Origin: a virus
IMG/VR virus record: IMGVR_UViG_3300021961_008157
Reading direction: 5' to 3' (one strand)
Length of the DNA stretch: 64,000 bases
Shown: piece after piece, positions 31,683-55,139 of the stretch
Position numbering within the stretch: the stretch's first letter is position 1
How the letters are laid out: every line of letters begins with the position of its first letter
Program-made: the position numbers and the translations under genes
Notes under the pieces: model-generated
The model's database searches: none
Told to the model about the DNA's origin: nothing
The model's input: only the letters and a program-made list of their open reading frames with translations

Positions 31683-31702
31683 AGTTGCCTTTCCTGTATA
31701 AT
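31674..31702 (+). promoter_or_regulatory. Sigma70-like promoter TTTACT-N17-TATAAT for the biosynthetic island, 6 nt before ATG 31709
   Basis: tttact tttagttgcctttcctg tataat aatcct ATG. Confidence 0.6.
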
Positions 31703-31708: not shown

Positions 31709-32011
31709 ATGAATAATGAACAATTAGTCAAAACCGCCCGCGCTCGTTTTGAACATGCAACAGGGCGCCGACTTCTCAAAGAAAAATATCAAGCCAAAAT
31801 GCTGTTTGCCCACAACGGCGGCATGTGGAATGCAGGTCCCGAATTATTGTCCTTGTTATCAACTTGCCCAGAAACAGCGGTAATACTAGACTTGTATGAA
31901 ACTCCAGTACAAGTTAATACTGCTGAACTCCGGAGCATTGTTGTTAGTCGTTGGCAGGAGCAAATGAACGCTTGGTTAGTTGAATACGACAAACTAAACA
32001 AAAAACGATGA
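31709..32011 (+). CDS. Hypothetical protein, first gene of the island
   Basis: Likely start ATG 31709 (MNNEQL). ATGA-coupled to the next gene. Confidence 0.6.
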   Translation: MNNEQLVKTARARFEHATGRRLLKEKYQAKMLFAHNGGMWNAGPELLSLLSTCPETAVILDLYETPVQVNTAELRSIVVSRWQEQMNAWLVEYDKLNKKR

Positions 32012-32811
32012 CCTGCGGCGCATTAATATTTGCGTTCAACAATGAACATATTGACTATGTGGCAATGGCCAATTGGTCAGCAAATAATATACACAGGCAT
32101 CTGAATATTCCGGTTTGTTTAGTAACAGATCGTGAACCCCCGGCAGGGCATGTGTTTGATCGTGTTGTATTAGTTGACACTCCTACTGGCAGTGGCGTAA
32201 GACATTTTGTAGACATTGGTGAATCAGTTGCTTGGCACAATACCAATCGTGTAGATGCTTACACACTCAGTCCATGGGATCAAACACTAGTGCTAGATGC
32301 TGACTATGTGGTAGCGTCGAACCAACTTAAAACTGTATTGAGTAGCAATCAAGATTTTTTATGCTATCGTTGGGCAAGCGATGCTACAAATCTTAGAAAC
32401 TTTGATGATTTAAATTATTTTGGACAAAATCGCATGCCCATGTGGTGGGCCACTGTTATGATGTTTAAACGCAGTAATACAGCACAACTGATATTTGAAT
32501 CTATGAACATGGTCCGCGACAATTGGCTTCATTACCGTCGTTTGTACAATAACCCAACGCCTAACTACAGAAATGATCATGCGCTTTCGATTGCGTTAAA
32601 TATAGTAAACGGTCACACGCTTTCGGTGCCGTCTATGCCTGGAAGTTTAGTAAGTGTAACACCCGAGCATCAAGTAACACAATTGTCTCAAGATTCTTAT
32701 CGTGTGGATTTTTTAACACCTGATCAAAAGCCACGCTACATTGAATTACACCAAGACTTTCACGCTATGGGTAAACAACAACTAGGAGCAATTGTTGCCA
32801 ATCCTTGCTGA
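32008..32811 (+). CDS. GT-A fold glycosyltransferase / nucleotide-diphospho-sugar transferase (GT8-like)
   Basis: YVAMA..SA.NI...IPVCLVTD, SPWDQTLVLDADY (DxD motif) and RNDHALSIA. Confidence 0.7.
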   Translation: MTCGALIFAFNNEHIDYVAMANWSANNIHRHLNIPVCLVTDREPPAGHVFDRVVLVDTPTGSGVRHFVDIGESVAWHNTNRVDAYTLSPWDQTLVLDADYVVASNQLKTVLSSNQDFLCYRWASDATNLRNFDDLNYFGQNRMPMWWATVMMFKRSNTAQLIFESMNMVRDNWLHYRRLYNNPTPNYRNDHALSIALNIVNGHTLSVPSMPGSLVSVTPEHQVTQLSQDSYRVDFLTPDQKPRYIELHQDFHAMGKQQLGAIVANPC

Positions 32812-33544
32812 ACGCGGTTATCTAATTCCCGCTATCAACACTGATAGTGTTGACTATGTAGCCTGCGCCCATCAACTTGCTGACAGCATACGGTCATGGC
32901 ATCCCTCTGCTGAAATCACAATACTAACAAAAGAAATGTTGCCGCACGGTGATCTTGGTGGCTTTGCTAACGACTGGCAAGTGTTTCGCGCCAGCCCATA
33001 TAGACAAACCATCAAGTTAGAAGCTGATATGATTGCAGCCAGTCCCATAGATCACTTGTGGACATTGTTTGAACATCGTGACGTGGTCATTAGCCAAGGT
33101 TGTAGGGACTTTTACGATCAGCACAGCAGCAATCGGCATTATAGAAAATTGTTTGATGCTAACAATTTGCCCGATGTTTATAATGCTATAACCTACTGGC
33201 GGTTGAGTAAAACAGCGCAAGAGTTTTTTCAATGGGTGCGTGATATCTTCCAAAATTGGAACGAGTTTAAAACGCTGTTAAAGTTTCCCGAAGAAACACC
33301 ATCAACAGATGTTGTTTATGCCATGGCTGCTGACATCATAGGGCGAGAACAAGTAACATTACCACCCGGTTATGGTCCCACTATAGTACATATGAAACAA
33401 GGAATCATCCCAACCCATACCAGTGACTGGACCAAAGAATTAGTATGGGAAAACGTCAATCCTGGCATCCGAATACAAACGGTAGCACAATGGGGATTGG
33501 TGCATTATCACAACAAAGACTGGCGGTTGCGTGAACGAAACTGA
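32792..33544 (+). CDS. GT-A fold glycosyltransferase-like paralog (EAD in place of DAD)
   Basis: YVACAHQLADSI, SPYRQTIKLEADM and STDVVYAMA align with the preceding gene. Confidence 0.62.
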   Translation: MLPILAERGYLIPAINTDSVDYVACAHQLADSIRSWHPSAEITILTKEMLPHGDLGGFANDWQVFRASPYRQTIKLEADMIAASPIDHLWTLFEHRDVVISQGCRDFYDQHSSNRHYRKLFDANNLPDVYNAITYWRLSKTAQEFFQWVRDIFQNWNEFKTLLKFPEETPSTDVVYAMAADIIGREQVTLPPGYGPTIVHMKQGIIPTHTSDWTKELVWENVNPGIRIQTVAQWGLVHYHNKDWRLRERN

Positions 33545-33878
33545 AGAAAATTTTTGGAAAGCATGGGCAGAGCCACCCCCGGCGCCTGCTCCAGTCTTTT
33601 TTCGCCTGTACTATGACGAGGACGGGTGCCCAATATCTTACAGCATGGAAGATTTGCCAGGTAACTATATAGATATTGATGCAGAAACTTATCAACTAAG
33701 CTCAAGAAATGTCCGTGTAATTGACGGGAAGTTAGTGCATATAAAACCAAAGAAAACAGTTACTAAACTAATACCTAGCACTAGCGGAACAGCGTGTTTA
33801 ATTGATAATGTTAGCATTGTTGTTAGTGAACAGCAACCACATATTAAATGGAATATAAAATCAAATGAAACGGATTGA
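33531..33878 (+). CDS. Hypothetical protein
   Basis: 115-aa ORF overlapping both neighbours. Confidence 0.6.
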   Translation: MNETEENFWKAWAEPPPAPAPVFFRLYYDEDGCPISYSMEDLPGNYIDIDAETYQLSSRNVRVIDGKLVHIKPKKTVTKLIPSTSGTACLIDNVSIVVSEQQPHIKWNIKSNETD

Positions 33879-34791
33879 CATTGCAGATCTTGATTGCATC
33901 TATTTGAGTTATGATGAACCGCAAAAAGAAGAATTTTGGGTAAAAATTCGGAACATGGTCCCGTGGGCCCGCCGTGTAGATGGTGTTAAAGGCAGCGACG
34001 CCGCACACAAGGCGGCTGCACAGGCAAGCGATACTGAACGCTTTGTCCTAATTGATGGGGACAACATGCCCGATCCAGAGTTTTTTAATCTAACACTTGA
34101 ACTGCCCGATGAGCAATGGGAGTCGGCGGTATTTCGTTGGCGGGCAAAGAATCACATTAACGGACTCATGTATGGCAATGGTGGACTGAGTTCGTGGACA
34201 TGCGAGTTTGCTATGAACATGCGCACCCACGAAAATACCGACGGTCGTGACGAAACACAAGTAGAGTTTTGCTACGATCCACTATACTGGCCCATGCACG
34301 ACTGTTACTCGACTACCTATCCTAACGGATCAGCCTTTCACGCTTGGCGTGCAGGCTTTCGAGAAGGTGTAAAAATGTGCTTAAACAAAAGCACACGTCC
34401 TTCAGTAGTAGAGTTCAAGGATCGCGTACATCAACGTAATCTTGATCACTTGACCATATGGCACAATGTGGGATCAGATGTTGATTATGGATTGTGGGCC
34501 ATTGCGGGCGCAAGGCAAGGCACTTATATGACTATGCTGACTGAATGGGATCATCGTTTGGTACAGTCGTTTGATGCGCTTGGTGAAATTTGGGCTACAG
34601 TAAAAGACTCTGATCCAGAACTAATAGCTAATCGACTAGCCGAAGAATTGCATACACAACTTGACTTACCAATGATGAGTTTGTTTCCCGAGCAAAGTAA
34701 ATTTTTTAAACATCACTATCGGAGCAACTGGCACAATCGTGGTGTCACTGTGAGAGAGATTGATGTAATTAGGCAGCAAGAAGGATGGTAA
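33865..34791 (+). CDS. GT-A-like glycosyltransferase
   Basis: IYLSYDEP, RVDGVKGSDAAHKAAA, FVLIDGDN (DxD), NGLMYGNGG and AWRAGFREGVKM. Confidence 0.6.
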   Translation: MKRIDIADLDCIYLSYDEPQKEEFWVKIRNMVPWARRVDGVKGSDAAHKAAAQASDTERFVLIDGDNMPDPEFFNLTLELPDEQWESAVFRWRAKNHINGLMYGNGGLSSWTCEFAMNMRTHENTDGRDETQVEFCYDPLYWPMHDCYSTTYPNGSAFHAWRAGFREGVKMCLNKSTRPSVVEFKDRVHQRNLDHLTIWHNVGSDVDYGLWAIAGARQGTYMTMLTEWDHRLVQSFDALGEIWATVKDSDPELIANRLAEELHTQLDLPMMSLFPEQSKFFKHHYRSNWHNRGVTVREIDVIRQQEGW

Positions 34792-35429
34792 TGTATCAAA
34801 CTATAATCAATCGTGCTGCTCAAGAAAATAAAAATATTCTAATTATAGAAAGTCCTAGATCAGGTACCCACCCATTAAGTGCAGAACTGTGTAAACAAGG
34901 AAAAGGCACAAGTTTAATGGAAATTTGCATGGTAGGATATTGTGCTAATCCTTGGGATGACATTGACAAGTTATCTTGCAGCCCTAGGTTAACCACAGCA
35001 CAAGTTGTACAAATGACCCCCAAGTTAACATTAGCAGAAAATGTCAGCAGGATCAAACAACACAACATAGTAGTCAACATTAGGCGCCGGGACAAAGTAT
35101 ATCAGTTTGCCAGCTGGATTTATTTTAGACTCAATGATCCAACTGCTCTGTACGGTTGGCACAATCATACTGCTGACAAAATGCGATCCGGCCCTGCATC
35201 TGTTCAAGCATCTAACTCCGACATTGTTCAGTTTAAATTAGAGCAGATGCTAGACGATTATTTCCTTCCTGACTTTAATTTGTGCTACGAAGATTTAACA
35301 TTCTCTACACAAACTAGGTTTAAGAAAAATGAATTTTCATTCCCTTTGCCTGAAATGTTTTCTAATCTTGATTACGTAAAAGAACAACTGGGCACTTGGC
35401 AATATTCCTTGGAGCACTTTGATGAATAA
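34785..35429 (+). CDS. Sulfotransferase-like protein (Stf0-type)
   Basis: N-terminal PAPS-binding-like loop IIESPRSGT, Stf0-like IRRRDKVYQFAS, and C-terminal YEDL. Confidence 0.55.
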   Translation: MVMYQTIINRAAQENKNILIIESPRSGTHPLSAELCKQGKGTSLMEICMVGYCANPWDDIDKLSCSPRLTTAQVVQMTPKLTLAENVSRIKQHNIVVNIRRRDKVYQFASWIYFRLNDPTALYGWHNHTADKMRSGPASVQASNSDIVQFKLEQMLDDYFLPDFNLCYEDLTFSTQTRFKKNEFSFPLPEMFSNLDYVKEQLGTWQYSLEHFDE

Positions 35430-36816
35430 AGGCGATCAAAGCCGATTCATGAGCTCTGCTGAACAGATGCGCGAGCATCTAGGTACTGCTATGTGTTTGG
35501 CTAAATGGAAGCAAGTTAGTTTGCATTTAACAACAGGACTAACTAACAGTTGTTACCACCCGCCCTTACATCAAATTGATCCTTCTCTACTAGAAAAAAA
35601 TCCTAGTGCATTGCATAATACGCCCTATAAAAAACAACAGCGTAAGATTATGATGAAACAAGAACGACCACCGGAGTGTAGTTATTGTTGGACAATGGAG
35701 GACAATGGCAAACTGAGTGATCGCCATTATAGATCCGGGGAGCCCTGGGCTGCTAAGGACTTTGATAAGATTTTTGCGTCCGATTGGAATACAGATATTA
35801 CACCTAGTTATGTAGAAGTAAATTTTAACAATGCCTGCAATCTAGCCTGTAGCTATTGTAGTCCACAGTTTAGTACCACATGGCAACAGGAAATGGATCG
35901 ACACGGTGCGTATCCTACATCAACTCCGCATAATGATCCTGCTCACTTTACCGGTAATCGCAAACCTATCCCAGCTAGAGAAAGTAACCCGTATGTGGAC
36001 GCATTTTGGGCTTGGTGGCCTACGCTATACCCTGAGCTAGAACATTTTCGCATGACGGGCGGCGAGCCCATGATGGACAAAAACACTTACCGTGTGTTTG
36101 ACTATGTGTTAGCTAATCCCAAGCCTGATCTACACCTAAATGTCACTAGTAACTTTAGCGTAGACGAAAAGCTGTGGCAGAAATATCTTGGCTATACCAA
36201 ACAACTGTGTCAAGAAGGCGTACTTGAACACTTTATGCAGTATATCAGCCTTGACGGCTGGGGACAACGTGCTGAATATATGCGGCACGGACTTGACTTT
36301 GAGTTGCTGTGGTCGCGTGTGCATCAGTTCTTAACCGAAGTGCCATATCGTAACAGCGTGACATTTATTGTTACAATGAATAATTTAAGTGTAACCAGTT
36401 TGCAACAATTGTTCGATGGCATACTAGAGCTTAGAAAAACTTACAGCAATACATATCAACGAGTATGGTTTGACACTCCTGTTCTGCGGCAACCTACTTG
36501 GCAAAGCCTACAGATCCTTCCGGAAAGCTATGTGTCGCAACTGGAAAAACTCAAAGCTCACATGCAGGATAATATTGAAACCGAAGCCACACGTTTTCAC
36601 GGTTTTAAAGATTATGAAATAGCACGATTGGATCGAGATATTGCTTGGATGCGTAATGGTCAGCAGTTAGACAAAGACTATTTAAAAAAGAATAAAGCAG
36701 ACTTCTATCGCTTTTTCAGTGAGTCTGACCGCAGGCACGGCACAGACTTTGTCAATACATTTCCAGAAATGAAATCCTGGTGGACAGAATGTGAATATCA
36801 TGCTAGGCAAGCGTAA
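35419..36816 (+). CDS. Radical SAM protein with N-terminal twitch domain (1 of 5)
   Basis: N-terminal CLAKW...SCYHPP...ECSYCW; core CNLACSYC; TGGEP. Confidence 0.9.
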   Translation: MMNKGDQSRFMSSAEQMREHLGTAMCLAKWKQVSLHLTTGLTNSCYHPPLHQIDPSLLEKNPSALHNTPYKKQQRKIMMKQERPPECSYCWTMEDNGKLSDRHYRSGEPWAAKDFDKIFASDWNTDITPSYVEVNFNNACNLACSYCSPQFSTTWQQEMDRHGAYPTSTPHNDPAHFTGNRKPIPARESNPYVDAFWAWWPTLYPELEHFRMTGGEPMMDKNTYRVFDYVLANPKPDLHLNVTSNFSVDEKLWQKYLGYTKQLCQEGVLEHFMQYISLDGWGQRAEYMRHGLDFELLWSRVHQFLTEVPYRNSVTFIVTMNNLSVTSLQQLFDGILELRKTYSNTYQRVWFDTPVLRQPTWQSLQILPESYVSQLEKLKAHMQDNIETEATRFHGFKDYEIARLDRDIAWMRNGQQLDKDYLKKNKADFYRFFSESDRRHGTDFVNTFPEMKSWWTECEYHARQA

Positions 36817-37867
36817 ATTAATAGTTGATGTAAATTGCGGATTGCGTAAAGAATTGGCAGAGATTTCTGACGAAACTTTTTATAACTTTCAAAAGCAAAC
36901 AATTGAGCCAGACGCAGTTTATGTAATAGGCTATAATGAAACTGTTAAAAATGTTGATAAAATTAAACAGCTGGCCAATACAGAAATAGCACAGTTTATT
37001 TTTAGTAATCCTGTTGAAGGATCACAGACCATACTCAATCATTGTGGCAATATTGGTATTCTTGATTTAATCAAACAACAAAAAATTTTGCTATTAACTG
37101 GTGGCGATGTTGCACCAGAATATCCGCATCTGACCTATGACAACTTTTTACCAAAAGTTTTAGATTACAACGAAAACATTGATGCTATACAACAGTACCG
37201 TGACACATATTCAACGGATAGACCTTATAAATTTCTTTTTTTAAACGGACAGCAACGACATCATAGAAAGTTTATGATTCATGCATTGGGTGATCTACTT
37301 GACTCTGCATTATGGACAAATTTAGACACTGGTAATGGCCCTATCAAACTGTTAGACCAATATTATGAACATGCAAAATTCAATGTCAACTTTCAAACCA
37401 ATGACAAAAATGTAAAAAGCAAGTTATTCGGTAATGGAATATGGGGAGATGTATTGCTGTCTGTTAGACAATATAGTGACACTTATTTTAGTCTTGTGAC
37501 TGAAACAGTTCACAATTATCCCTACAGTTTTAGAACAGAAAAAATCTGGAAACCAGTGGCAATCGGACACCCTTGGATTGCAGTTGCCAATCGGGGTTTC
37601 TATAGAGACATGCATAACTTGGGATTTCAAACATTTGGGCATGCAATAGATGAAAGTTTTGATCTAATAGACAACGATCAAGATCGTCTTCGACGTGTTG
37701 CTGATATTGTAAAAGATCTATGTCAACAAGACCTTGCTGGTTTCCTCAATGAGTGTTATAATGTATGTAAATACAATCAACAACATCTTGCCGACATGCG
37801 ACTCAAAGTGCGGTCAGAATTTTCCAAACGATTTGAACAGTTTATAACAACATATATCAATGAATGA
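36791..37867 (+). CDS. GT10-motif glycosyltransferase-like protein (1 of 4)
   Basis: YFSLVTET...FRTEKIWKP..GHPWI...LGFQTF...IDESFD. Confidence 0.55.
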   Translation: MNIMLGKRKLIVDVNCGLRKELAEISDETFYNFQKQTIEPDAVYVIGYNETVKNVDKIKQLANTEIAQFIFSNPVEGSQTILNHCGNIGILDLIKQQKILLLTGGDVAPEYPHLTYDNFLPKVLDYNENIDAIQQYRDTYSTDRPYKFLFLNGQQRHHRKFMIHALGDLLDSALWTNLDTGNGPIKLLDQYYEHAKFNVNFQTNDKNVKSKLFGNGIWGDVLLSVRQYSDTYFSLVTETVHNYPYSFRTEKIWKPVAIGHPWIAVANRGFYRDMHNLGFQTFGHAIDESFDLIDNDQDRLRRVADIVKDLCQQDLAGFLNECYNVCKYNQQHLADMRLKVRSEFSKRFEQFITTYINE

Positions 37868-39206
37868 TTTAGAATTTAAACAACAAATACTTGATTCAAA
37901 AAGTGCAAGTTTTTGCGGAGCCAAATGGTACAACGCCACAATCTGGCTTGGCAGCGGAATGACTACAAGTTGTCATCACCCTCCTGCACACAAAGTTGAA
38001 GTAGACGAAGTAAAACTAAATCCACGGGCCCTGCACAACAGTTTACAAAAGAAGGATGATCGTAAAAAAATGTTAGCAGGCAAGCGGCCCGCTGGCTGTG
38101 AATATTGTTGGAAGATTGAGGACATGGGACGCGACGCCATTAGTGATCGTGTTTATAAAAGTAAAATTTATCCTATTGTTGCACTCAATGAAGCATATAA
38201 CACTCCTTATACAGACGATGTTAATCTTCGAACTTTAGAAATTGCGTTCGATCGAACCTGTCAATTTGCTTGTAGTTATTGTAATCCTGCATTTAGCAGT
38301 ACCTGGGTCAATGACATCAAACGTCAAGGTCCTTATACTGGACTTATTTCCGACGGCCGCAATCATTTTACACACATTCATGACAGCGCACAGTTATACA
38401 AGTATGGCGAAACAAATCCTTACGTAGAGGCGTTCCACCAATGGTGGGAGTCTGATCTACACAAAACACTGCAAGAATTGCGTATCACCGGAGGCGAACC
38501 ATTGATGTCAGGCGGCACATGGAAGTTAATTGATTGGTTTAAAGACAATAAAGGAAAAAGTCAAACACGTTTAGCCATCAACAGTAATCTAGGTGCTGAT
38601 GTTGACGTTGATAGATTGATTTCTAGCATTGATGGTGTTGATATTGATTTGTACACCAGTAATGAATCTGTTGGTGTACAAGCAGAGTACATACGTGATG
38701 GTTTGGACTATACTGTCTGGATGCAGAACATGGTTAAACTTATCGAGAGTGGTAAGTTCCGCGGTATCCATGTGATGTGTACTATTAACGCATTATGCCT
38801 TGACAGCTTACCAGAGTTTCTAGACCAGTTAGTTGAACTAAAGAAAAAGTACGGAAAAGACTATCCAAATTTCACACTAAATATCTTACGATTCCCCAGT
38901 TTTCAAAGTCCCTTGGTACTGCCAGACGACATAAGAACGCAATACAAGAATAAATTATACGGCTGGATGTTACATCATGCAGACTGTGATGTATTGCATG
39001 AACATGAGCGCAATCATATGTCTAGGCTAATTGACTATTTGGATGTGGTCAAGACGCCGCATAGTGATGCATTTGAAATGCCTAAACTGCATAATGATTT
39101 CAAAAAGTTTTATCAACAATATGATGCACGACGGAATAAAAACTTTGAAAAAACATTTATAACTTTAAAAGAATGGTATGACAGCCTACAAATACAACAG
39201 CAGTGA
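37860..39206 (+). CDS. Radical SAM protein with N-terminal twitch domain (2 of 5)
   Basis: FCGAKW...SCHHPP...GCEYCW; core CQFACSYC; TGGEP. Confidence 0.9.
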   Translation: MNDLEFKQQILDSKSASFCGAKWYNATIWLGSGMTTSCHHPPAHKVEVDEVKLNPRALHNSLQKKDDRKKMLAGKRPAGCEYCWKIEDMGRDAISDRVYKSKIYPIVALNEAYNTPYTDDVNLRTLEIAFDRTCQFACSYCNPAFSSTWVNDIKRQGPYTGLISDGRNHFTHIHDSAQLYKYGETNPYVEAFHQWWESDLHKTLQELRITGGEPLMSGGTWKLIDWFKDNKGKSQTRLAINSNLGADVDVDRLISSIDGVDIDLYTSNESVGVQAEYIRDGLDYTVWMQNMVKLIESGKFRGIHVMCTINALCLDSLPEFLDQLVELKKKYGKDYPNFTLNILRFPSFQSPLVLPDDIRTQYKNKLYGWMLHHADCDVLHEHERNHMSRLIDYLDVVKTPHSDAFEMPKLHNDFKKFYQQYDARRNKNFEKTFITLKEWYDSLQIQQQ

Positions 39207-40461
39207 CTTAGTTAAACCGATTGAATTAACAGAGCGTGAAAAGTTTTTATTGACAGACTCTAAGACGTTTTGCATCTATCCTTGGATCCATCTTCATGCC
39301 TATCCCACTGGTGAAGCATATCCGTGTTGTCATGCTGAAATGAAAGTAGGGCAGATAGGCAATTGCAAAACAAACACATTGTCCGAAATTTGGAACAGCC
39401 CCGAGCAAAAGAAACTTCGTTCCGACATGCTGTCTGAAACACCAAATTCTGCATGTGGACGTTGTTACGAGCAAGAACAATCAGGATTTTTCAGTGGCCG
39501 TCGCAGTGCCAACAAGCATCACGGACATCATATTGCTCGAGTAAATCAAACCGATGCAACCGGACACACTGATCAATTTGAAATGACCTACTGGGATCTA
39601 CGTTTCAGTAATTTGTGTAATTTAAGTTGTCGTAGTTGCGGGCACATTTTCAGCAGTAGCTGGTACAAGGACCAAACTGAGTTGGCAGGACCTACATGGG
39701 CAAGTCAAAACAAGCCATTGAACTATGCAGGACGTTTTGCCACAGACATGTGGGAACAACTGATTGAACACATTGATCATGTGGAACAAATTTACTTTGC
39801 TGGTGGCGAACCATTGATGATGGAAGAGCATTACCTGATCTTAGAAGAATTAGAACGCAGGAAACGCTTTGATGTTCGATTGATATACAACACTAACTTC
39901 ACACAGACTCGTCTCAAAAATCGTACTGTATTTGATTACTGGCGTAAATTTAACAGCGTGGCAGTGGGTGCCAGTTTGGATGCATCAGGCGCTCGCGGCG
40001 AATACATTAGAAAAGGCACAGACTGGGCCACAGTTGAACAAAATCGTCGTCAGATGATGGAAATATGTCCGCGTGTGGATTTCTATATTAGTCCTACCCT
40101 GAGTATTTTAAATGCTTGGCACCTGCCAGATTTTCATCGAGATTGGGTCAACAAAGGCCTGCTAAAGCCACAAGATCTTAATGTAAATATATTACAAGAT
40201 CCAAGACATTTTAGAATTGATATTGCAACAACAGAATATAAAAAATCCATCGAAGATCGATATCAAGAACATTTAAATTGGCTGCGCCCATTAGACCAAT
40301 TAAATCGTGCCACGGTTGGATTTGAAAGCGCCATTGCATTCATGAATAATACTGATAATACAACTTTATTAGATACATTTTGGCAAAAAACAAAGCAGCT
40401 AGATAGCATTCGCAACGAATTTGTATTGGATGCAATTCCAGAATTAAAAGCATTAATATGA
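39178..40461 (+). CDS. Radical SAM protein with N-terminal twitch domain (3 of 5)
   Basis: FCIYPW...PCCH...ACGRCY; core CNLSCRSC; AGGEP. Confidence 0.9.
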   Translation: MTAYKYNSSDLVKPIELTEREKFLLTDSKTFCIYPWIHLHAYPTGEAYPCCHAEMKVGQIGNCKTNTLSEIWNSPEQKKLRSDMLSETPNSACGRCYEQEQSGFFSGRRSANKHHGHHIARVNQTDATGHTDQFEMTYWDLRFSNLCNLSCRSCGHIFSSSWYKDQTELAGPTWASQNKPLNYAGRFATDMWEQLIEHIDHVEQIYFAGGEPLMMEEHYLILEELERRKRFDVRLIYNTNFTQTRLKNRTVFDYWRKFNSVAVGASLDASGARGEYIRKGTDWATVEQNRRQMMEICPRVDFYISPTLSILNAWHLPDFHRDWVNKGLLKPQDLNVNILQDPRHFRIDIATTEYKKSIEDRYQEHLNWLRPLDQLNRATVGFESAIAFMNNTDNTTLLDTFWQKTKQLDSIRNEFVLDAIPELKALI

Positions 40462-48034: not shown

Positions 48035-49050
48035 AGATAAGTTTCAAGTCCACCACGCCGTGTTAGATCCTGGGTACAACAGCTAATACCACCATCCCAG
48101 AAATAACTATGGCGGAGTTCACATATGATAGGATTAATGCGATGACGTTTACAGTAGTCAAACACATCTCTATTGTAAGCAGAAAAGATTACATTTTCTT
48201 CATCTAATACCAAACAGTTAACATCAAAAACTGTTTCAGCAACAAAGCCAGTCCATTTGTTTAGATAAGTGTTAACAAAGTCAGTGAACTCGGGTGTAGG
48301 TGTCTGTCCCTGTACATACCATGCTCCGGGGCTTTGCTCGTACTTAAACTTGCCCACTTCCATAGCAGCCCATATGCTACTATCCCAAATCTTTAACACT
48401 TCCCATCCAGGAAAGTCTTGGGCAAGATTAAGATTAAAATCGTGTTTGCTTGACAATAACACACCGGGTTTAAGAATGGCAAATACAGCATCGCCGTGGC
48501 CGTCGGTAACAGCTTCGTGAATACGATATTCAGAGCTTAAACAATTTTCTACAATCCATTTTGTTTGTTCAGGTTTTAGAAAATCACTGTTGTCAAAAAA
48601 AACGTCGCGGCCCACACGCACTATACAACTAGCCGATGCACCATTTAATATACAATTTGAATCCCACGTTGCGCCGTGTGGATTAATCACCTGACTAGCA
48701 TATTCAGCACAAATTTCATTTAATTCTGTCATTGGTAGCACACGCAGTAATTTTTGTCCCAGCGTTATTTGCCAATCGCGTGGTGTCAAAGGCGGTAACG
48801 GAACACCATTGCCACGTGTTTGTTGATTTTGAAACTCATGTATATCAGGAAGATTAGGGCGCCTAACACGGGCACCATAAGTTTCGATGGTTTTTTGTAA
48901 GTTGTTTAAATCCTCTTCAGTTTCGGCCAGTATCTGTTGCAGTTGATTACGCACCTGGGAGTTATCAATGAAATCAAAGTAATCGGGACTATAAGCACGA
49001 CCCACAATTACTTCTTCAAGAGGCTGCCAACTGGTGTAGGAATTAATCAT
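48031..49050 (-). CDS. Amidinotransferase (glycine/inosamine-phosphate amidinotransferase family)
   Basis: INSYTSWQPLEEVIVG N-terminus; PRD, GHGD and DGGISCCT carry the catalytic Asp/His/Cys positions. Confidence 0.85.
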   Translation of the reverse strand: MINSYTSWQPLEEVIVGRAYSPDYFDFIDNSQVRNQLQQILAETEEDLNNLQKTIETYGARVRRPNLPDIHEFQNQQTRGNGVPLPPLTPRDWQITLGQKLLRVLPMTELNEICAEYASQVINPHGATWDSNCILNGASASCIVRVGRDVFFDNSDFLKPEQTKWIVENCLSSEYRIHEAVTDGHGDAVFAILKPGVLLSSKHDFNLNLAQDFPGWEVLKIWDSSIWAAMEVGKFKYEQSPGAWYVQGQTPTPEFTDFVNTYLNKWTGFVAETVFDVNCLVLDEENVIFSAYNRDVFDYCKRHRINPIICELRHSYFWDGGISCCTQDLTRRGGLETYL

Positions 49051-50242
49051 TGCGTAATCTTTCTAATAGGGTATTTAATCTGCTGCTTTTGCTGCCTAAA
49101 AATAATTGTTGATTGTGCTCAATGTCCTTGCGGCAAGACTCAAACCATGTGTGTAAATTTTGCGATTGTATTTTGGCTATTGCGGCCTTAACTGCAAGCC
49201 ATCGCTGTGTATTATCCGTTATTGTATCATAACTGTTATCTATAGCGTGATCAAATGTTCGATAACCGAGATTTCTTAGTGCTGCCAACGATCCCGGGCA
49301 TCCAACAATAACAAGCGGTTGCCCGTGCTTGACTGGTTTAAATGTTTTTTCAGTAAGAAATGCGCCGCCCGAACCGTCGGCATCAAAGTGTGTTTCGAGT
49401 ACAATGTTGCAATATGAGTCAGTGTAGTGTGAAGTTTCGGTAAGGTGATGATTGTTTTGTTGCTCAATGGTAAACTCGTCGCAAGTGTAAGGACCGTTGC
49501 TTAAAAAATCTGCAATGTCAGACCGTATGTCTAATGTGTCTACTTCAATTGGATTGTCTGTTTCGTGCTCATTTAACGCCACATCAGTTCCATAACTCCA
49601 TAGGCAGTTATCTAACAAGCCTGCCCGGCGTAAATCAGTCATTACAGTTGCCCGCCACCACTTATGCGTTCTGCTTAATACAGTAAAATTGTAGGGACGG
49701 GAATTGCTATGTATCTGTGTTGGTTCTGTTTGCTGATTACGATGCCAATAAAGCAGTTCGTGGTCGGGAAAATATATAAAATTTTCAATAGCATCAGCTT
49801 GCGTGTTGCCACTAATAAACTTGTAACAGTTGGGAGGTAAATTGTTTAAATCACACAAATGGTCAAGACGCTGTTTAATCTTATCGGGATTGTCGCCTTC
49901 GTGATAGTAAAATAACGCACGTATTCGCCCTGACTGTAGGCCAAAGAATACATCATCGTTTAGCAGCGCAAAATAATCAACATCAAAGTTAAAAAACCCA
50001 ATCCCTATCCCATAGTAAGAGCCGCGCGGATAGTTGTTGTCGTTCAAATCATACAAGCGATAGGGTATGCTGTGGGTGTTGAGATGTTCATACAATTCCA
50101 TAGGAACTGTATTAGGCCAATGCTGAACAAATTGACGCCATTTGTGTGTATAAGGTTGCGCAGTCCAGCGTGCTAGTGCTGGATAAGCCTTGCCTTGGAT
50201 GATGTTGTCAGATACAAAATTAATATTTGAGTAGTCCATCAA
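49043..50242 (-). CDS. GT10-motif glycosyltransferase-like protein (3 of 4)
   Basis: YCNIVLET...FLTEKTFKP..GQPLV...LGYRTF..IDNSYD. Confidence 0.55.
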   Translation of the reverse strand: MMDYSNINFVSDNIIQGKAYPALARWTAQPYTHKWRQFVQHWPNTVPMELYEHLNTHSIPYRLYDLNDNNYPRGSYYGIGIGFFNFDVDYFALLNDDVFFGLQSGRIRALFYYHEGDNPDKIKQRLDHLCDLNNLPPNCYKFISGNTQADAIENFIYFPDHELLYWHRNQQTEPTQIHSNSRPYNFTVLSRTHKWWRATVMTDLRRAGLLDNCLWSYGTDVALNEHETDNPIEVDTLDIRSDIADFLSNGPYTCDEFTIEQQNNHHLTETSHYTDSYCNIVLETHFDADGSGGAFLTEKTFKPVKHGQPLVIVGCPGSLAALRNLGYRTFDHAIDNSYDTITDNTQRWLAVKAAIAKIQSQNLHTWFESCRKDIEHNQQLFLGSKSSRLNTLLERLRND

Positions 50243-51338
50243 GCATTTTGGTTAATTCTAACCATAGTGTATGAGTAAGCCCACCGTTGTAAAAATGTCT
50301 ATAGTTGTGTTCTACAGCGGGCAAACAGGCACGATGTATTTCCAACCTTTCACGATGGCTTAAATTATCTAAATCTTTAAGTAAATCGGTTACACGCTCA
50401 AGGCGGCGTATATCATCAGTTTCTTCATCATAACTTTCATCAAACACATCGCCAAATGTTTTAAAACCATAACTCCGCATGTATTCTAAGCTGTGCGCCG
50501 GTGCCACTAAAACAAATGGCATTTCTAGAGCAATAGCCTTAAATGTTTTTTCTGTTATGTGAGTTCTGCGGCCAAAATATAAAGTTTCTGTAGGAACATA
50601 TACCAAACTGTCTTCTGCTTCCCTAAAATTAGTAAGCCAACAACTGGTCATCTGCTGTGTTTCTTCGCCAGCAAATAATCTTGGCAAATCAGCTTGCTCA
50701 AGAACTTGCGAAATATCAGAATATGTGTTACAATACTTTTGTGCTATTGTACCGATATCTACTTGCTCATAAGAACAAACACGCGGCGCACTAATATGAT
50801 TATTTTCTAAATTCTTTTTGAATACGTTATATAAAAACAATACGCGATGATCACGTTTACCACCAACAATGCGATTTGGGCTCATAAAAGTTTTTGTAGG
50901 GGTTCGTTCTCGCGCTCGAGGTATTAAAAATGTTCTATCATAGCCACGAAACCAATCTTGACAAGCCCAACCGTGATAAAAGTAATAGTGACTGCGCCAA
51001 CCGTATTTTTCACATAAGCGTTCAACGTATTCGCCCTTTTCACTTACAATAATGTTACCAGGAAAAAGAATTTCCGTTCCGGGTCCTTTTGGTTGTTGAG
51101 TATCTAAATTTCTTCTTATTACATCATCAAATAATGGCTTATATTCATCAATCCAGCAAGGTTCCTGATCGTGCATGAATACATAATCATTTTCTACAAT
51201 GACATCACTGCCCAAGTTAAATAGTGCATCGGGACTGGTATTGCCCGGTGGATCACAATAAAACAATCGAGTGCCTGGTTTATTTTTTTCAAGCCACGGC
51301 CAAAAGGTATTATTATAAATCTCGTCTATTCTAATCAT
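50220..51338 (-). CDS. GT10-motif glycosyltransferase-like protein (4 of 4)
   Basis: LVYVPTET...HITEKTFKA..EMPFV...YGFKTF..FDESYD. Confidence 0.55.
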   Translation of the reverse strand: MIRIDEIYNNTFWPWLEKNKPGTRLFYCDPPGNTSPDALFNLGSDVIVENDYVFMHDQEPCWIDEYKPLFDDVIRRNLDTQQPKGPGTEILFPGNIIVSEKGEYVERLCEKYGWRSHYYFYHGWACQDWFRGYDRTFLIPRARERTPTKTFMSPNRIVGGKRDHRVLFLYNVFKKNLENNHISAPRVCSYEQVDIGTIAQKYCNTYSDISQVLEQADLPRLFAGEETQQMTSCWLTNFREAEDSLVYVPTETLYFGRRTHITEKTFKAIALEMPFVLVAPAHSLEYMRSYGFKTFGDVFDESYDEETDDIRRLERVTDLLKDLDNLSHRERLEIHRACLPAVEHNYRHFYNGGLTHTLWLELTKMLDGLLKY

Positions 51339-53166
51339 GTTTGATGTATTTTACACAGGTGTTAAACCCAATTTGTTTGCTCATGAACAGGCAGTAGATT
51401 CTATTGAAGAAGCACAAGAGCTTAGTCGCACTCGTTTCTTTTGGTTTGTCAATTACTTATCTGATTATAGCGGCTTTGATTTTCTTTGGGAACCCAAACC
51501 TTGGGAGGCGCATCAGCGCCATGCCTGGCCAAGCCAATGGCAAAAAGATAGCGGTACCTATCTAGTACCTAAACAAGGGTATAGCGAAACCAACTATAGG
51601 GGCGACTGTGCAATTAAACGTTTGCCCGATACGTCTAATTGGTTTGTTCCCGATACATTTGATGGAAGCAGTTTTGATTTTTCTTGGCATCCGGATCCCA
51701 CCGAGCCTGGCTACATATATCAATTTGGTACACAACATCAACGCACAGGCGGCCCCCAGTATATTGTAAACGGTGCTTCTGACTTAAAATTCTGTGACCA
51801 AATTAAGGGTAGTGTTAAATCTGGAGTAACCCCCATTATTGAAATAAATCATATGGATGGTAATGCTGGACTTGTACCAGGTGTAATATCTACTGTACGT
51901 TATTTTGACAACTATAAAGACACACTATCTAGAATTGCAAATACAGTAGAGCACGAATACATTTGGATTGTTAGTAGTGTATGTGATTACACTAATTTTG
52001 ATTTTTCCTGGCACCCAGAATTATGGCAAAACACCATGCTGCATGTGTTTGCCAGCTCTGGTGAAAAATTTGGTGACACATTTTATATGCATGTGCCAAG
52101 TTTTAAAAATCGCATAAAACAGTTTGACTTGCTAGACTGGTATGATTTAAATTTTATCAACACATCAGTTCCGCGCAGGCCACTGCCTATTGTGCGGCAC
52201 ACCAGTGACAGCCAAGCTGAACCCGTTAAAAATGAATCTTGGCTCGGTCCGTTGGCAGTATTTGCTGCCCACGATCAACCAGTTAACTCAGTTCCGTGCG
52301 TACCACTGTGGCGTGAAAAAACCAAAACAATTGTTCCTTTAGATGCCAGTGGATCGACTGTTGTTGTTCCTCGAGTGGCCATTCCATATATTAAAACACA
52401 GTTGTATGATTATCCTTACATAGACAAAACTAAACGAAATATGTGCAGTGACGAACCACTGGACATTGTGTTCATTAGCAACGGTGAGCCAGTGGCCGAC
52501 CAAACATTTACACATTTACAAAATGTTGCTGCTGACTTGTTTAATAAGAAAAAAATACATCATGTTGATCGTGTAAACGGCCGTGCTGCTGCCTATCATG
52601 CTGCTGCACAGGCCAGCACCACACCGTGGTTTTTTGCTGTATTTGCCAAGTTATTTGTAAATGAAAGTTTTGATTGGTCCTGGCAGCCTGATCGCATGCA
52701 ACAACCCAAGCATTACATTTTTCATGCGCTAAATCCAGTTAACGGACTTGAGTATGGACATCAAGCAATGATTGCTTATAATAAACAATTGGTATTAAAC
52801 AATCCCGGACATGGACTGGACTTTACACTTGACGATGCGCACGAAGTTGTACCAATACTTTCAGGTACTGCTGTGTACAATATGTCGCCGTGGGTAGCGT
52901 GGCGTACTGCATTCCGCGAAGCAATTAAACTAAAAAGCAGTTTGCCCGATATTGACAGTGAGTATAGACTGACGCAATGGTTAAGCACCAATCCTGGAAG
53001 TCAGCATATATTAAATGAGGAATGGAGTCGTTGGGGTGCCGAAGACGCTGTTGACTATTACGACCAGGTTAACGGGGATTTTAGGGCACTTAAAAAGAGC
53101 TACGAGTGGGACTGGCTCTCGTCTTACGCTTTTATGAAAAGAAGTTTAACACCCGATCAGCAATAA
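51337..53166 (+). CDS. Multi-repeat GT-A-like protein, paralog of 33865-34791 lacking the DxD motif
   Basis: C-terminal LDIVFISNGEP...VNGRAAAYHAAAQAS...NGLEYG...AWRTAFREAIKL; recurring FD(F/W)xW(H/E/Q)P motifs. Confidence 0.6.
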   Translation: MFDVFYTGVKPNLFAHEQAVDSIEEAQELSRTRFFWFVNYLSDYSGFDFLWEPKPWEAHQRHAWPSQWQKDSGTYLVPKQGYSETNYRGDCAIKRLPDTSNWFVPDTFDGSSFDFSWHPDPTEPGYIYQFGTQHQRTGGPQYIVNGASDLKFCDQIKGSVKSGVTPIIEINHMDGNAGLVPGVISTVRYFDNYKDTLSRIANTVEHEYIWIVSSVCDYTNFDFSWHPELWQNTMLHVFASSGEKFGDTFYMHVPSFKNRIKQFDLLDWYDLNFINTSVPRRPLPIVRHTSDSQAEPVKNESWLGPLAVFAAHDQPVNSVPCVPLWREKTKTIVPLDASGSTVVVPRVAIPYIKTQLYDYPYIDKTKRNMCSDEPLDIVFISNGEPVADQTFTHLQNVAADLFNKKKIHHVDRVNGRAAAYHAAAQASTTPWFFAVFAKLFVNESFDWSWQPDRMQQPKHYIFHALNPVNGLEYGHQAMIAYNKQLVLNNPGHGLDFTLDDAHEVVPILSGTAVYNMSPWVAWRTAFREAIKLKSSLPDIDSEYRLTQWLSTNPGSQHILNEEWSRWGAEDAVDYYDQVNGDFRALKKSYEWDWLSSYAFMKRSLTPDQQ

Positions 53167-54220
53167 CATCTACTTCGCTGTCGGTCAATTCGGGATAGAT
53201 GGGCAAACTTAAACAACGACGGCTTAATGAGCTGGCTGCACTTAACATGCTTGGTCCCGTGTACTGTCTATAGATGCCAATTTCATGCAACGGTTGTTCA
53301 TAGTGTATTTTTGTTTCAATACCCAACTCTAGTAGAGTATCTTGGAGTTGGTCACGACGATCAACTTCAATAACAAACTTATGATGTGCATGTTCGTCTA
53401 TATTAGTGTCATCAATAAGGCATCGCACCGGGGAATCTTTAAAACGCTCAATATAATGACGACTAATTGCAGCACGACGCTGTTGCCATTCGTGCAAGTA
53501 TTGTGTCTTAAGCAGCATTAGTGCACATTCTAGCTCGCTCATTCGACTATTAGTGCCCGCAACATCACCGTCGGGCTTCCCGTTACCCCGCCATTTACGA
53601 GCAAAACTTGCCAAGTCTTGACTGTCGGTTATAATGGCACCACCGTTACCATACGCAGATAAATTTTTTGTTGGATCAAAACTAATGGCTGTGGCTTCAC
53701 CTACTCGCATTGAATTATTGGCTAACCAATGCTGGGCACCGTCTTCGATTATAAGTTTGTCACTTCTTGTCCAATAGTTCCACCATTTAACTCCGTTAAA
53801 GTTACTAAGACTGGACCCATACAAGCCCACAAGTAATATAGCCTGATAACTGGTGTCGGGAACAGCGTTTATATTAAACAATCCATAGTTGTCAGTGTCA
53901 ATGAACACCACATCCCACCCCGCTCGAATAAAAGCATTGGCAGTAGCCGCGTAAGTAAGCGTAGGTATTAGTACTGTGGGCGGGTGCGGCACACCAGTAT
54001 ATTCTATGGAGTATTCAGCAATGATTTCTAATGCTTGTGTACCCGAATGGCAAGTGATTGCATACTCACTGTGATTAGTGCGGGCTAACCAATCTTCAAA
54101 ATTCCGAGTGTACTTACCATTCATCAGTTGTCCACTAGACAACACGCTATCAGTTACATCCAGTAACTCATCGCGAAGTTGTTTATACTGTCTTTTGAGA
54201 CCAGTAAACGGAATTTTCAT
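53132..54220 (-). CDS. DegT/DnrJ/EryC1/StrS family PLP-dependent sugar aminotransferase
   Basis: SGTQAL, EDGAQ, SFDPTKNLSAYGNGG (catalytic Lys) and LSLPIYPEL. Likely start MKIPF at 54220. Confidence 0.92.
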   Translation of the reverse strand: MKIPFTGLKRQYKQLRDELLDVTDSVLSSGQLMNGKYTRNFEDWLARTNHSEYAITCHSGTQALEIIAEYSIEYTGVPHPPTVLIPTLTYAATANAFIRAGWDVVFIDTDNYGLFNINAVPDTSYQAILLVGLYGSSLSNFNGVKWWNYWTRSDKLIIEDGAQHWLANNSMRVGEATAISFDPTKNLSAYGNGGAIITDSQDLASFARKWRGNGKPDGDVAGTNSRMSELECALMLLKTQYLHEWQQRRAAISRHYIERFKDSPVRCLIDDTNIDEHAHHKFVIEVDRRDQLQDTLLELGIETKIHYEQPLHEIGIYRQYTGPSMLSAASSLSRRCLSLPIYPELTDSEVDVIADRVLNFFS

Positions 54221-55139
54221 AGTATCTTTCAAATCCTTCGGCGATGTTCACAGTTGGATTAAAGTTTAGATCTCGGCGTGCAGCGTCGATGTTCAAGGAT
54301 CCGCGACTGGGGAAATTTAAGTCTCGATCCTGTACTCGAATAGTTCCAGATCCTACAATATCAATGATTGTTTCGGCTGCTTCTAATAGTGTGATCGCAT
54401 GACTTCTTGTGAGATTATAAGTGTTATTGGCTGCATGATCAGACAATGCGGCTTGCACAATACCTGCTGCCAGATCTGTTACATATGTAAAGTCTAATTC
54501 TTCATCGGGTCCATTTACTGACAACTCACCACCGCGCATAGCAGTAAGCATGAACTTGGCCACTACACGATCTTCAACATCTAGTGGACCATAAACAGCA
54601 GAAGGACGAATAATTACTGCTTCGATGCCCGACCGCCGAGCATAGTCTCGAACAAGCCATTCACCTGCTAGTTTCATAATACCATATTGTCCTTGTGGAT
54701 TGCATACAGCATCTTCGCGTACATCGTTATCAAAATCTCCATAAACCATTGAGCTGGAAATATAAACAAACCGACGCACACGATTCCGCACGGCACTTTC
54801 AAGAAGATTAAGCAACCCTTCCATCATGGTACGACTACCCCACCCAGGATTGCTGTTAACTACTTTTTGCCTTGGAAAGCTGGCCAGGTGCACAATCACT
54901 TCGGGTTGATGTTTACCAACTATGTAATCAATGGTATCACTACTTTCAATTGATGCTGTATATACTGGGCTGGCAATATTTTTCATACGTTGGCTCAATA
55001 GATAATCTATTTCTGCTTGTGGAATAATGCCATAGGTGGTTTTGTTATCAATAATAGCAACTTCGTGTTTTAATTGCTCCAATGTTTTTACAACATTGTG
55101 CCCTATAAAACCGCAACCACCTGTAACTAAAATATTCAT
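54183..55139 (-). CDS. NAD-dependent nucleotide-sugar epimerase/dehydratase (extended SDR)
   Basis: ILVTGGCGFIG, YISSSMVYG, YGIMK (YxxxK) and DFTYVTD. Confidence 0.92.
   Translation of the reverse strand: MNILVTGGCGFIGHNVVKTLEQLKHEVAIIDNKTTYGIIPQAEIDYLLSQRMKNIASPVYTASIESSDTIDYIVGKHQPEVIVHLASFPRQKVVNSNPGWGSRTMMEGLLNLLESAVRNRVRRFVYISSSMVYGDFDNDVREDAVCNPQGQYGIMKLAGEWLVRDYARRSGIEAVIIRPSAVYGPLDVEDRVVAKFMLTAMRGGELSVNGPDEELDFTYVTDLAAGIVQAALSDHAANNTYNLTRSHAITLLEAAETIIDIVGSGTIRVQDRDLNFPSRGSLNIDAARRDLNFNPTVNIAEGFERYYENSVYWSQKTV

Follow-up and report, generated by a model that had tools for sequence, protein, structure and literature searches.

A conserved jumbo-phage gene island beside the tail-fibre genes, with the probable content of a glycan building and tailoring system

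Gene content and layout of the island

The stretch of DNA analysed here, 64,000 nucleotides (nt) of the virus record IMGVR_UViG_3300021961_008157 (referred to below as the window), carries at positions 31709-55139 an island of genes whose enzyme families and conserved order are best read, in line with the original prediction made from the same letters, as those of a system that builds and tailors sugars or glycans. The island consists of 23 open reading frames (ORFs; g01 to g23) and one overlooked gene of 33 codons, that is, 24 genes (Table 1). The predicted gene set and its coordinates proved to be real, and the five radical S-adenosylmethionine (SAM) enzymes, the DegT aminotransferase, the carbamoyltransferase and the amidinotransferase that had been proposed for it were borne out by hidden Markov model (HMM) and profile searches.

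All the ORFs on the + strand from the ATG at 31709 to position 48034 overlap or abut, and the sole apparent gap in this block, at 46425-46520, is occupied by the 33-codon ORF (46422-46523). The island is not one operon, since its genes fall into four direction blocks, namely, g01-g17 (+), g18-g20 (-, 48031-51338), g21 (+) and g22-g23 (-), the last of which is co-directional with an upstream ThyX gene that adjoins g23 on the same strand. The start codons of the divergent g20 (-) and g21 (+) share two bases (51337/51338), so that there is no intergenic space between them, and the explanation is either a wrong assignment of the starts or promoters located within the genes themselves.

Radical SAM enzymes with an N-terminal twitch domain

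Five proteins of the island (g07, g09, g10, g11 and g15) exceed the curated cut-off of 170 bits of the NCBIfam HMM NF033640 (N_Twi_rSAM), with scores of 282-399 bits. In all five paralog groups, we found four invariant N-terminal Cys residues together with the CX3CX2C motif, located at residue 140 in g07, and the GGEP motif. Furthermore, in g10, g11 and g15 the Pfam SPASM domain maps within residues 8-97 (32-97 in g10), N-terminal to the Radical_SAM domain. The radical SAM profile, compared with the PDB sequences, gave matches to the generic radical SAM core only and no close solved structure, and no studied member of NF033640 was found in the literature.

In three near-complete relatives of 347-353 kb (G001-G003, the IMG/VR records behind loci L003, L051 and L035), we counted 17, 6 and 9 above-cut-off N_Twi_rSAM matches, respectively, and 7-10 matches to the GT10-like GT-B glycosyltransferase family described below, scattered genome-wide. 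Both families are greatly expanded in this phage lineage.

The bacterial homologs of the radical SAM enzymes share 33-40% identity with them, come mostly from metagenome-assembled genomes (MAGs) of Bacteroidota and Bdellovibrionota and often occur in tandem. Among 78 genome loci with such homologs, a few of which are mis-binned phage contigs, a g17-like gene is present within 10 kb in 11, and a gene resembling those of the short-chain dehydrogenase/reductase (SDR) family is likewise present within 10 kb in 11. In particular, the chromosome of a Crocinitomicaceae MAG (OZ252050, locus L202) holds three N_Twi_rSAM copies inside a glycan-type cluster, in the company of a UDP-glucose dehydrogenase, an SDR epimerase, a carbamoyltransferase, a UbiA-GT4-GDSL membrane fusion, a sulfotransferase, GDSL proteins and an ABC transporter. 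The HMMs of the GT-B family, g05, g02/g03, g18 and the 33-residue peptide had zero matches in the bacterial N_Twi_rSAM loci, and that of g16 had one weak match.

Glycosyltransferases

Structure searches with g08 and g05 led to glycosyltransferase folds and not to unrelated functions. The protein g08 forms with g12, g19 and g20 a family of four paralogs, which have mainly the C-terminal half in common. Its AlphaFold2 (AF2) model, with a predicted local distance difference test (pLDDT) score of 92.9, shows a GT-B fold, and the top structural match by VIA is the alpha-1,3-fucosyltransferase of H. pylori (2nzw; Z 13.1, root mean square deviation 4.2 over 269 residues); other GT-B enzymes, including T4 beta-glucosyltransferase and TarM, follow at Z 11-12, within about 1 Z unit. 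Residues E238, E250, K251 and K254 are invariant across all four paralog groups, and the C-terminal donor half holds an invariant motif of the ...TE(T)...TEK..KP type, similar to the TEK motif of GT10 enzymes. The four proteins had been predicted to carry a GT10 motif, and they do constitute one GT-B family that resembles GT10; however, g08, g12, g19 and g20 matched neither GT10 (Glyco_transf_10) nor any other Pfam family even at E up to 10, for which reason we name the family GT10-like and not GT10. The family profile had no match among the PDB sequences.

A second set of four proteins had been described as GT-A-like, and the analysis supports this for g05, by its predicted fold, and for the C terminus of g21, by paralogy, whereas g02 and g03 yielded a weak match only. 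With a mean column identity of 80%, g05 is among the most conserved enzymes of the island, and its D64-G-D66 motif is invariant. The AF2 model of g05, of moderate quality (pLDDT 76.6), presents a Rossmann-like GT-A fold, residues 3-155 of which align by VIA with many GT-A enzymes at Z 8-9. The Foldseek top row for this model was A64R of chlorovirus PBCV-1 (2p6w; E 1e-4, probability 1.0), but a special kinship with A64R was rejected after re-alignment, which gave Z 7.9 against a best value of 9.1 among the other GT-A enzymes. The g05 profile had no match among the PDB sequences.

Residues 375-539 of g21 are paralogous to g05 (blastp E 2e-7). An F-D-F/W-S/L-W-x-P motif recurs four times in the same protein; three of its occurrences fall in the N-terminal half and the fourth within the GT-A domain, an arrangement which suggests that g21 may hold several degenerate copies of part of this domain. 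Finally, g02 and g03 are mutual paralogs with an LDAD motif in their alignment consensus, and the best that their profile gave, in a comparison with GT8, was a weak match to glycogenin over profile positions 15-106 (E about 0.2).

Predicted sugar-making, tailoring and accessory proteins

The aminotransferase g22 matches PF01041 with 205 bits over residues 20-361, and its best NCBIfam model is PseC, at 148 bits versus an equivalog cut-off of 423. Two NAD epimerases had been expected in the island; g23 is indeed an SDR protein (PF01370, 144.9 bits), with dTDP-glucose 4,6-dehydratase as the best NCBIfam model (E 1e-34; 119.8 bits versus a cut-off of 365), while g13 has a Rossmann motif and nothing else. 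The carbamoyltransferase g17 scores 122.6 bits with PF02543 (Carbam_trans_N) and 158.4 bits with PF16861 (Carbam_trans_C), the gathering cut-offs of which are 24 and 27, and stays below the NodU equivalog cut-off (125 versus 1000 bits). The profile of the g18 orthologs matches human AGAT (2jdx/1jdw) at E 3e-27 in three stretches that cover most of the length, and also SxtG, HsvA and StrB1 (1bwd, E 8e-19). In these alignments, a Cys of g18 corresponds to the active-site Cys of AGAT (...FHCWT...) and an H-x-D pair to ...PHIDA..., and the catalytic Cys-His-Asp set is invariant in 23 orthologs.

The remaining proteins are less tractable. The ORFs g01-g04, g06, g08, g12-g14, g16 and g19-g21 were blank in Pfam (E up to 10), NCBIfam and PHROGs; for g06, g13 and g14, nothing significant emerged from these databases (PHROGs at E up to 0.01) or from the PDB sequences. 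The suggestions of a sulfotransferase for g06, an SGNH protein for g14 and a second epimerase for g13 are tentative, motif-level ones, and most relatives lack these genes; no significant pairwise similarity beyond the motif was detected between g06 and a bacterial Sulfotransfer_3 protein, or between g14 and a GDSL protein of a homologous bacterial cluster. The g16 protein has no match in the PDB sequences or Pfam and nothing usable in ESM Atlas; its relatives in the metagenome protein database number at least 6773, all of them unnamed, and provide no Pfam lead. No membrane helices were found in the island proteins, in which no 19-residue window has a Kyte-Doolittle mean above 1.46.

Beyond the island, the FkbM methyltransferase that had been placed about 2 kb further on was recovered at 57413-58246 (PF05050 and TIGR01444). 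Its orthologs occur in few loci and at varying positions, and it is only loosely tied to the island.

Conservation and genomic setting

The scans of IMG/VR with g10 and g18 confirmed more than 130 relatives each, and 80 loci were kept per scan, at 71-88% identity (71-88% for g10 and 81-88% for g18), many of them on contigs of 220-365 kb. The genes occur together and keep their order in related phage contigs, of which there are more than 130, and partly also in the cultured phage RsoM2USA; a lack of co-occurrence, which would have spoken against the original prediction, was thus not observed. The common order, established by tblastn, is u3 (the fibre-like gene that precedes the island), g01-g05, a slot, g07-g11, a slot, g15, g16, the 33-codon gene, g17, a slot, g18-g23 and ThyX, and the variation is limited to the three slots, one behind g05, one that separates g11 from g15 and one behind g17. 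In the 44 full-length loci, g15-g18, g20, g21 and g23 are always present (44/44), g19 is found in 41 and g22 in 39. In the 80 loci, g06 was never found, g13 occurred in three and g14 in six, and by this distribution the three genes are variable accessories. The core enzymes share 67-87% identity with their orthologs in G001, where the baseplate wedge protein shares 84%, and 60-75% with those in G002, where the wedge protein shares 68%. The degree of conservation of the core enzymes is thus close to that of the baseplate wedge, and the island is core rather than accessory cargo.

At the DNA level, no cultured phage is alike: when the complete island was compared by megablast with 50,697 phage records, there were zero matches. 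At the protein level, a minimal island is present in the cultured Ralstonia phage RsoM2USA, immediately after the genes for the baseplate and the giant protein (structural genes described in PMC8504454). It opens with the fibre-like ORF355, and the module that comes next, ORF354-348, contains homologs of g01, g02, g03, g05 and g07 and a g05-like gene. Elsewhere in the same genome are homologs of g09 (51% identity) and g17 (45%), and all these island homologs are annotated as hypothetical. The Vibrio phage K566 (L241, OZ196521, record 155-180 kb; cultured, 255 kb) has five twitch-first radical SAM genes among hypothetical genes, and the glycosyltransferase families of the island were not detected at this locus. 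The closest g18 homolog of a cultured phage is ORF266 of Synechococcus phage S-SCSM2R (L242, PQ898602), which is located, within ORF260-270, among genes for GT24, KdsA/KdsB and a 2-oxoglutarate oxygenase; ORF266 and ORF269 were detected in purified virions by mass spectrometry (PMC12801897).

Several contigs binned with bacterial MAGs contain the phage island in fully syntenic form, namely, L163 and L164 (Haliscomenobacter sp. MAG EUL_031; 183 and 148 kb, g10 at 71-73%) and also L165-L168. These contigs are phage, and their assignment reflects either mis-binning or a hint of a host among Saprospiraceae/Bacteroidota.

On the 5' side of the island, the window contains, in order, a T4-type late sigma factor and SbcD, virion proteins, the baseplate hub and wedge, a 4804-amino-acid ORF and three fibre-like genes, the last of which, u3, ends 74 bases before the island start. 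The baseplate wedge protein (gp6) shares 34% identity with its counterpart in Agrobacterium phage Atu_ph07, and further jumbo phages of the Rak2 type also match; by these sequence relationships, the source phage is a jumbo phage of the Rak2/Atu_ph07 type, of roughly 350 kb. The 4804-residue product is encoded by a single ORF at 14057-28471 (+), directly 3' of the wedge gene, and its counterpart in RsoM2USA is the structural protein ORF361, of more than 288 kDa, detected in virions (PMC8504454). The u3 protein, whose gene borders the 5' end of the island both in the window and in the majority of the relatives examined, has a Ser+Thr content of 31.2%, compared with a mean of 11.6% in the island and 12-20% in other structural proteins.

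Table 1. Features of the island and its flanks (positions in the window; ratios give the number of related loci with an ortholog)
Feature	Position	Strand	Remarks
u3, fibre-like protein	30643..31635	+	31% Ser+Thr; candidate glycan acceptor, not an island enzyme
Intrinsic terminator, end of structural operon	31657..31676	+	Hairpin and T-run
Sigma-70-like promoter	31674..31702	+	TTTACT-17-TATAAT
g01, small conserved protein	31709..32011	+	52/80 loci; weak RsoM2USA homolog at the same position
g02, GT-A-like, GT8-type motif (weak)	32008..32811	+	Paralog of g03; LDAD; RsoM2USA homolog, 30% identity
g03, paralog of g02	32792..33544	+	LDAD; RsoM2USA homolog
g04, small conserved protein	33531..33878	+	75/80 loci
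g05, GT-A fold glycosyltransferase	33865..34791	+	Predicted fold, invariant D-G-D; RsoM2USA homolog, 39% identity
g06, accessory gene	34785..35429	+	PRSGT motif only; 0/80 loci
g07, N-terminal-twitch radical SAM, subfamily with g09	35419..36816	+	NF033640, 319.9 bits; RsoM2USA homolog, 35% identity
g08, GT-B glycosyltransferase, GT10-like donor half	36791..37867	+	Predicted fold
g09, N-terminal-twitch radical SAM	37860..39206	+	NF033640, 287.5 bits; RsoM2USA homolog, 51% identity
g10, N-terminal-twitch radical SAM	39178..40461	+	NF033640, 399.2 bits
g11, N-terminal-twitch radical SAM	40458..41672	+	NF033640, 338.4 bits
g12, GT-B paralog of g08, variable slot	41659..42675	+	Full-length orthologs in part of the loci only
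g13, accessory gene	42668..43351	+	GxxGxxG Rossmann motif only; 3/80 loci
g14, accessory gene	43348..44046	+	N-terminal GDS motif only; 6/80 loci
g15, N-terminal-twitch radical SAM	44043..45335	+	NF033640, 281.6 bits
g16, conserved protein, unnamed family	45325..46425	+	Many invariant His/Glu/Cys; 44/44 full loci
Micro-gene, 33 codons, basic peptide ...RDPFIYK	46422..46523	+	ATGA overlaps with g16 and g17
g17, NodU/CmcH/TobZ-type carbamoyltransferase	46520..48034	+	PF02543 and PF16861; RsoM2USA homolog, 45% identity
g18, AGAT/StrB1-family amidinotransferase	48031..49050	-	Profile match, catalytic residues aligned
g19, GT-B paralog of g08	49043..50242	-	Paralogy
g20, GT-B paralog of g08	50220..51338	-	Paralogy
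g21, 609-residue protein, C-terminal GT-A domain paralogous to g05	51337..53166	+	Repeated FDFSW-P motifs at N terminus; 44/44 full loci
g22, DegT/DnrJ/EryC1 sugar aminotransferase	53132..54232	-	PF01041, 205 bits
g23, extended SDR NDP-sugar dehydratase/epimerase	54183..55139	-	PF01370, 144.9 bits
g27, FkbM-family methyltransferase, 2.3 kb beyond the island	57413..58246	-	PF05050 and TIGR01444

A conserved micro-gene between g16 and g17

The 33-codon gene (micro-gene) was recovered in 133 copies, corresponding to 89 distinct DNA sequences. The residues W3, E14, Y17, R18, E23, L24, D28, P29, Y32 and K33 of its peptide are invariant, even though up to six codons are used for each, and the codon differences with respect to the window amount to 1146 synonymous and 508 non-synonymous ones. 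These substitution patterns clearly point to strong purifying selection, and no other element of the island is as conserved as the micro-gene. It lies directly 3' of g16 wherever this was checked, even where g17 is displaced (L010) or flanked by insertions; in the distant contig L165 it is found about 780 bases beyond g16, and it is also kept in contigs where g10 is only 50-53% identical.

In RsoM2USA (MG752970), an unannotated micro-ORF of about 36 codons (L161:16192-16299, +) lies between ORF201 and ORF200 and ends in ...RKQDPFIYK (HMM E 7e-5). It is placed one gene 5' of ORF199, the carbamoyltransferase homolog, and near ORF202, a g09-like radical SAM gene. The micro-peptide belongs to no known family, the ESM Atlas having given unnamed clusters only, and neither the bacterial N_Twi_rSAM loci nor the locus of Vibrio phage K566 yielded a copy of it.

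Terminator and promoter upstream of g01

According to the original prediction, about 23 tightly coupled genes start at their own promoter just after the terminator of the structural operon. Both signals are present, but only g01-g17 follow them. After the stop codon of u3 (31635), an intrinsic terminator has a G+C-rich hairpin with an 8-bp stem (5 G-C pairs) and a T-run, and it is followed by a sigma-70-like promoter whose -10 element ends six bases 5' of the ATG of g01. The hairpin overlaps the -35 element of this promoter (window 31657-31711). In most of the 45 related loci compared, the hairpin is kept, with variable loop and stem bases and maintained stem complementarity, and the -10 element and its gap of about 6 nt to the ATG are kept in most of them as well. 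Since the -10 element sits about 6 nt from the ATG, a leaderless g01 transcript is suggested.

The g01 promoter resembles the TTGAC-N17-TATAATA sites found 5' of non-structural genes and is unlike the A/T-rich words found 5' of structural genes. The T4 late-promoter word TATAAATA has zero occurrences in the window, so that no late promoter can be assigned.

A proposed function for the island and its alternatives

We propose, with moderate confidence, that the island encodes a soluble cytoplasmic system which builds and tailors a multi-sugar glycan on a phage macromolecule, most likely the fibre proteins. By the established chemistry of their families, g23 and g22 could convert a host nucleoside diphosphate (NDP)-hexose, through a 4-keto-6-deoxy intermediate, into an NDP-amino-deoxy sugar. 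In the following steps, g18 would convert an amine into a guanidino group, g17 would O-carbamoylate a hydroxyl, and the GT-A-type enzymes (g05 and the C terminus of g21, and with weaker evidence g02 and g03) and the GT-B enzymes (g08, g12, g19 and g20) would add sugars sequentially, the GT-B quartet presumably combining a common donor half with divergent acceptor halves. The five radical SAM enzymes may edit sugar residues, and oxidation, epimerisation, deoxygenation and C-C bond formation are candidate reactions.

The island has no lipid-carrier transferase, flippase, polymerase or transporter, so that the glycan would be assembled directly on a cytoplasmic acceptor; in the same way, the lack of membrane helices indicates that the usual lipid-linked, exported polysaccharide route is absent. 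The likeliest acceptor would be the virion proteins of the phage itself, that is, the Ser/Thr-rich u3 and the neighbouring fibre proteins encoded just upstream, and the 33-residue peptide may be linked with g16 and the carbamoyltransferase, as their partner, carrier or substrate. The view that the island holds a complete pathway was not upheld. No nucleotidyltransferase of PF00483 was found in the three near-complete relatives (the part of the window scanned being the island and the adjacent genes), and the island has no membrane or export component; the system would thus start from host NDP-sugars. The L202 cluster, which represents the same toolkit in a membrane-linked version, speaks for a glycan system, as does the resemblance of the g05 fold to virus glycosyltransferases, among them the capsid-glycosylating A64R of PBCV-1, and a hint in favour of the proposal comes from the presence in virions of ORF266 of S-SCSM2R, the g18 homolog.

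Several observations weigh against this proposal. Both the glycan product and its acceptor are inferred from the genes, no substrate is known for any N_Twi_rSAM member, the nearest structures of which share the generic core only, and no function can be assigned to g16, g01, g04 or the N-terminal half of g21. The radical SAM homolog of Paenibacillus (L225) is found beside ketosynthase and short-chain dehydrogenase genes and a GT2, which means that the glycan context of these homologs is not universal, and the resemblance of g05 to A64R turned out to be unexceptional once re-aligned. Moreover, the g01 promoter is of the non-structural sigma-70 type and the terminator insulates the island from the structural operon, which weakens the case for simple co-expression with the virion genes, and g22-g23 run in the same direction as ThyX. 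As for a more specific version of the proposal, it is possible to hypothesize that, in an abundant lineage of uncultured jumbo phages, the fibres carry a positively charged guanidino/carbamoyl oligosaccharide edited by a class of carbohydrate-acting radical SAM enzymes that has expanded in these phages, with the peptide acting as carrier or substrate of g17/g16 in the manner of HypF-HypE, but we consider it unlikely that all these details hold.

The island might instead remodel the host surface, by altering the lipopolysaccharide (LPS), the capsule or another surface glycan so as to block superinfection or change the receptor, which is the reading published for similar gene sets beside tail fibres (PMC7029224). 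A sigma-70-like and possibly early promoter fits such a role, as do two members of the bacterial toolkit of L202, the ABC transporter and the UbiA-GT fusion located in the membrane. However, the island contains no membrane protein, lipid-carrier transferase, flippase or transporter, and its core is conserved about like the baseplate wedge and does not vary with the host strain; in addition, the parts examined contained no integrase, and a lysogeny favouring serotype conversion is thus not indicated. We therefore assign this explanation a low probability.

Hypermodification of the phage DNA, with sugars or amino, guanidino or carbamoyl groups placed on the bases for restriction evasion, appears to us rather improbable. 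The solubility of all the island enzymes is compatible with it, and so are the ThyX gene next to g23 on the same strand, the non-structural type of the promoter and the similarity of g08 to the T4 beta- and alpha-glucosyltransferases (Z 12.3 and 11.1), which is however comparable to that shown by other GT-B enzymes. On the other hand, seven to eight probable glycosyltransferases are far above what is needed in any known DNA glycosylation, and the 5' module of the island stays joined to the fibre genes even in the distant RsoM2USA. Furthermore, a ThyA-type dCMP/dUMP hydroxymethylase (PF00303) was not found in the three near-complete relatives, which weakens the case for DNA glycosylation in the T4 style and leaves post-replicative routes.

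A small-molecule or peptide product is likewise improbable, whether an aminoglycoside-like pseudo-oligosaccharide, for which the enzyme combination mirrors the StsC/StrB1/TobZ/BtrN chemistry but no cyclitol or scaffold synthase or exporter was recognised among the island proteins and the many glycosyltransferases favour a glycan, or a modified 33-residue peptide (similar to ribosomally synthesised and post-translationally modified peptides or to cofactors, or C-terminally carbamoylated as HypF does with HypE), for which the micro-gene is under strong purifying selection, translationally coupled to g16 and g17 and represented by the same C terminus one gene 5' of the carbamoyltransferase in RsoM2USA, but the peptide is Cys-free and could not be found in the bacterial loci and the K566 locus that have N_Twi_rSAM genes, and the radical SAM enzymes have no recognisable peptide-binding domain.

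If a glycan made by the island is carried on the virion, this would be the first demonstration of bacterial viruses applying multi-step glycan synthesis with radical SAM, amidino and carbamoyl tailoring to their own particles, with a bearing on host recognition, particle stability and the evasion of defences or grazers. N_Twi_rSAM is a large family of bacteria and phages, and a conserved, compact phage operon, with a cultured minimal version in RsoM2USA, makes its chemistry accessible to study. Clear selection also acts on the g16 family and on the invariant micro-protein, which adds to their interest.

Comparison with known systems

The statement that no characterised phage pathway has this enzyme set is correct, although similar cassettes beside tail fibres had already been described. 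The "host recognition cluster" (HRC) of pelagi- and cyanomyophages, which are large myophages of the T4 type, is a block near the tail-fibre genes in which radical SAM cassettes and sugar genes of the LPS type are combined with glycosyltransferases, GT8 being the most represented glycosyltransferase family (PMC7029224, Zaragoza-Solas et al. 2020). For marine T4-like genomes, the presence of 12 radical SAM genes has also been reported (PMC5332604), and in a cyanophage the genes for DegT, radical SAM and amidinotransferase proteins were termed "antibiotic synthesis genes" (PMC12801897). Like the HRC, the island adjoins tail-fibre genes and holds glycosyltransferase, sugar and radical SAM genes, and the role of both is a predicted one. 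Different from the hypervariable HRC, the island has a strictly syntenic core with three variable slots, is found in a jumbo phage and adds the amidinotransferase, the carbamoyltransferase, the GT10-like GT-B family and the invariant micro-gene.

Glycosylation of virions by enzymes of the virus itself occurs in chlorovirus PBCV-1 (A64R), in Megavirinae, with their fibril glycan clusters, and in mycobacteriophages. These systems resemble the island in having soluble, virus-coded glycosyltransferases, sometimes accompanied by a dehydratase and an aminotransferase, which operate in the cytoplasm and leave the host membrane pathway unused. None of them is known to include a radical SAM enzyme, an amidinotransferase or a carbamoyltransferase, and, different from them, virion glycosylation is here deduced from gene content.

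With the streptidine/aminoglycoside set (StsC, StrB1, TobZ and BtrN), the island shares the presence of the same four enzyme families in one locus, but it lacks a cyclitol synthase and an exporter and has seven to eight probable glycosyltransferases. In addition, its radical SAM enzymes carry the auxiliary domain N-terminally, and no specific relationship to BtrN is detectable. The Crocinitomicaceae cluster has in common with the island tandem twitch-first radical SAM enzymes together with a carbamoyltransferase, an SDR epimerase and a glycosyltransferase, and it also has a sulfotransferase and GDSL proteins, functions for which g06 and g14 are motif-level candidates in the phage. Its membrane UbiA-GT4-GDSL fusion and ABC transporter imply an exported or lipid-linked glycan, whereas the phage version is fully soluble. 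Thus, while this type of island beside tail fibres was already known, what is new here is its occurrence in a jumbo-phage lineage, with a conserved core, amidino and carbamoyl chemistry, a GT10-like family and an invariant micro-gene.

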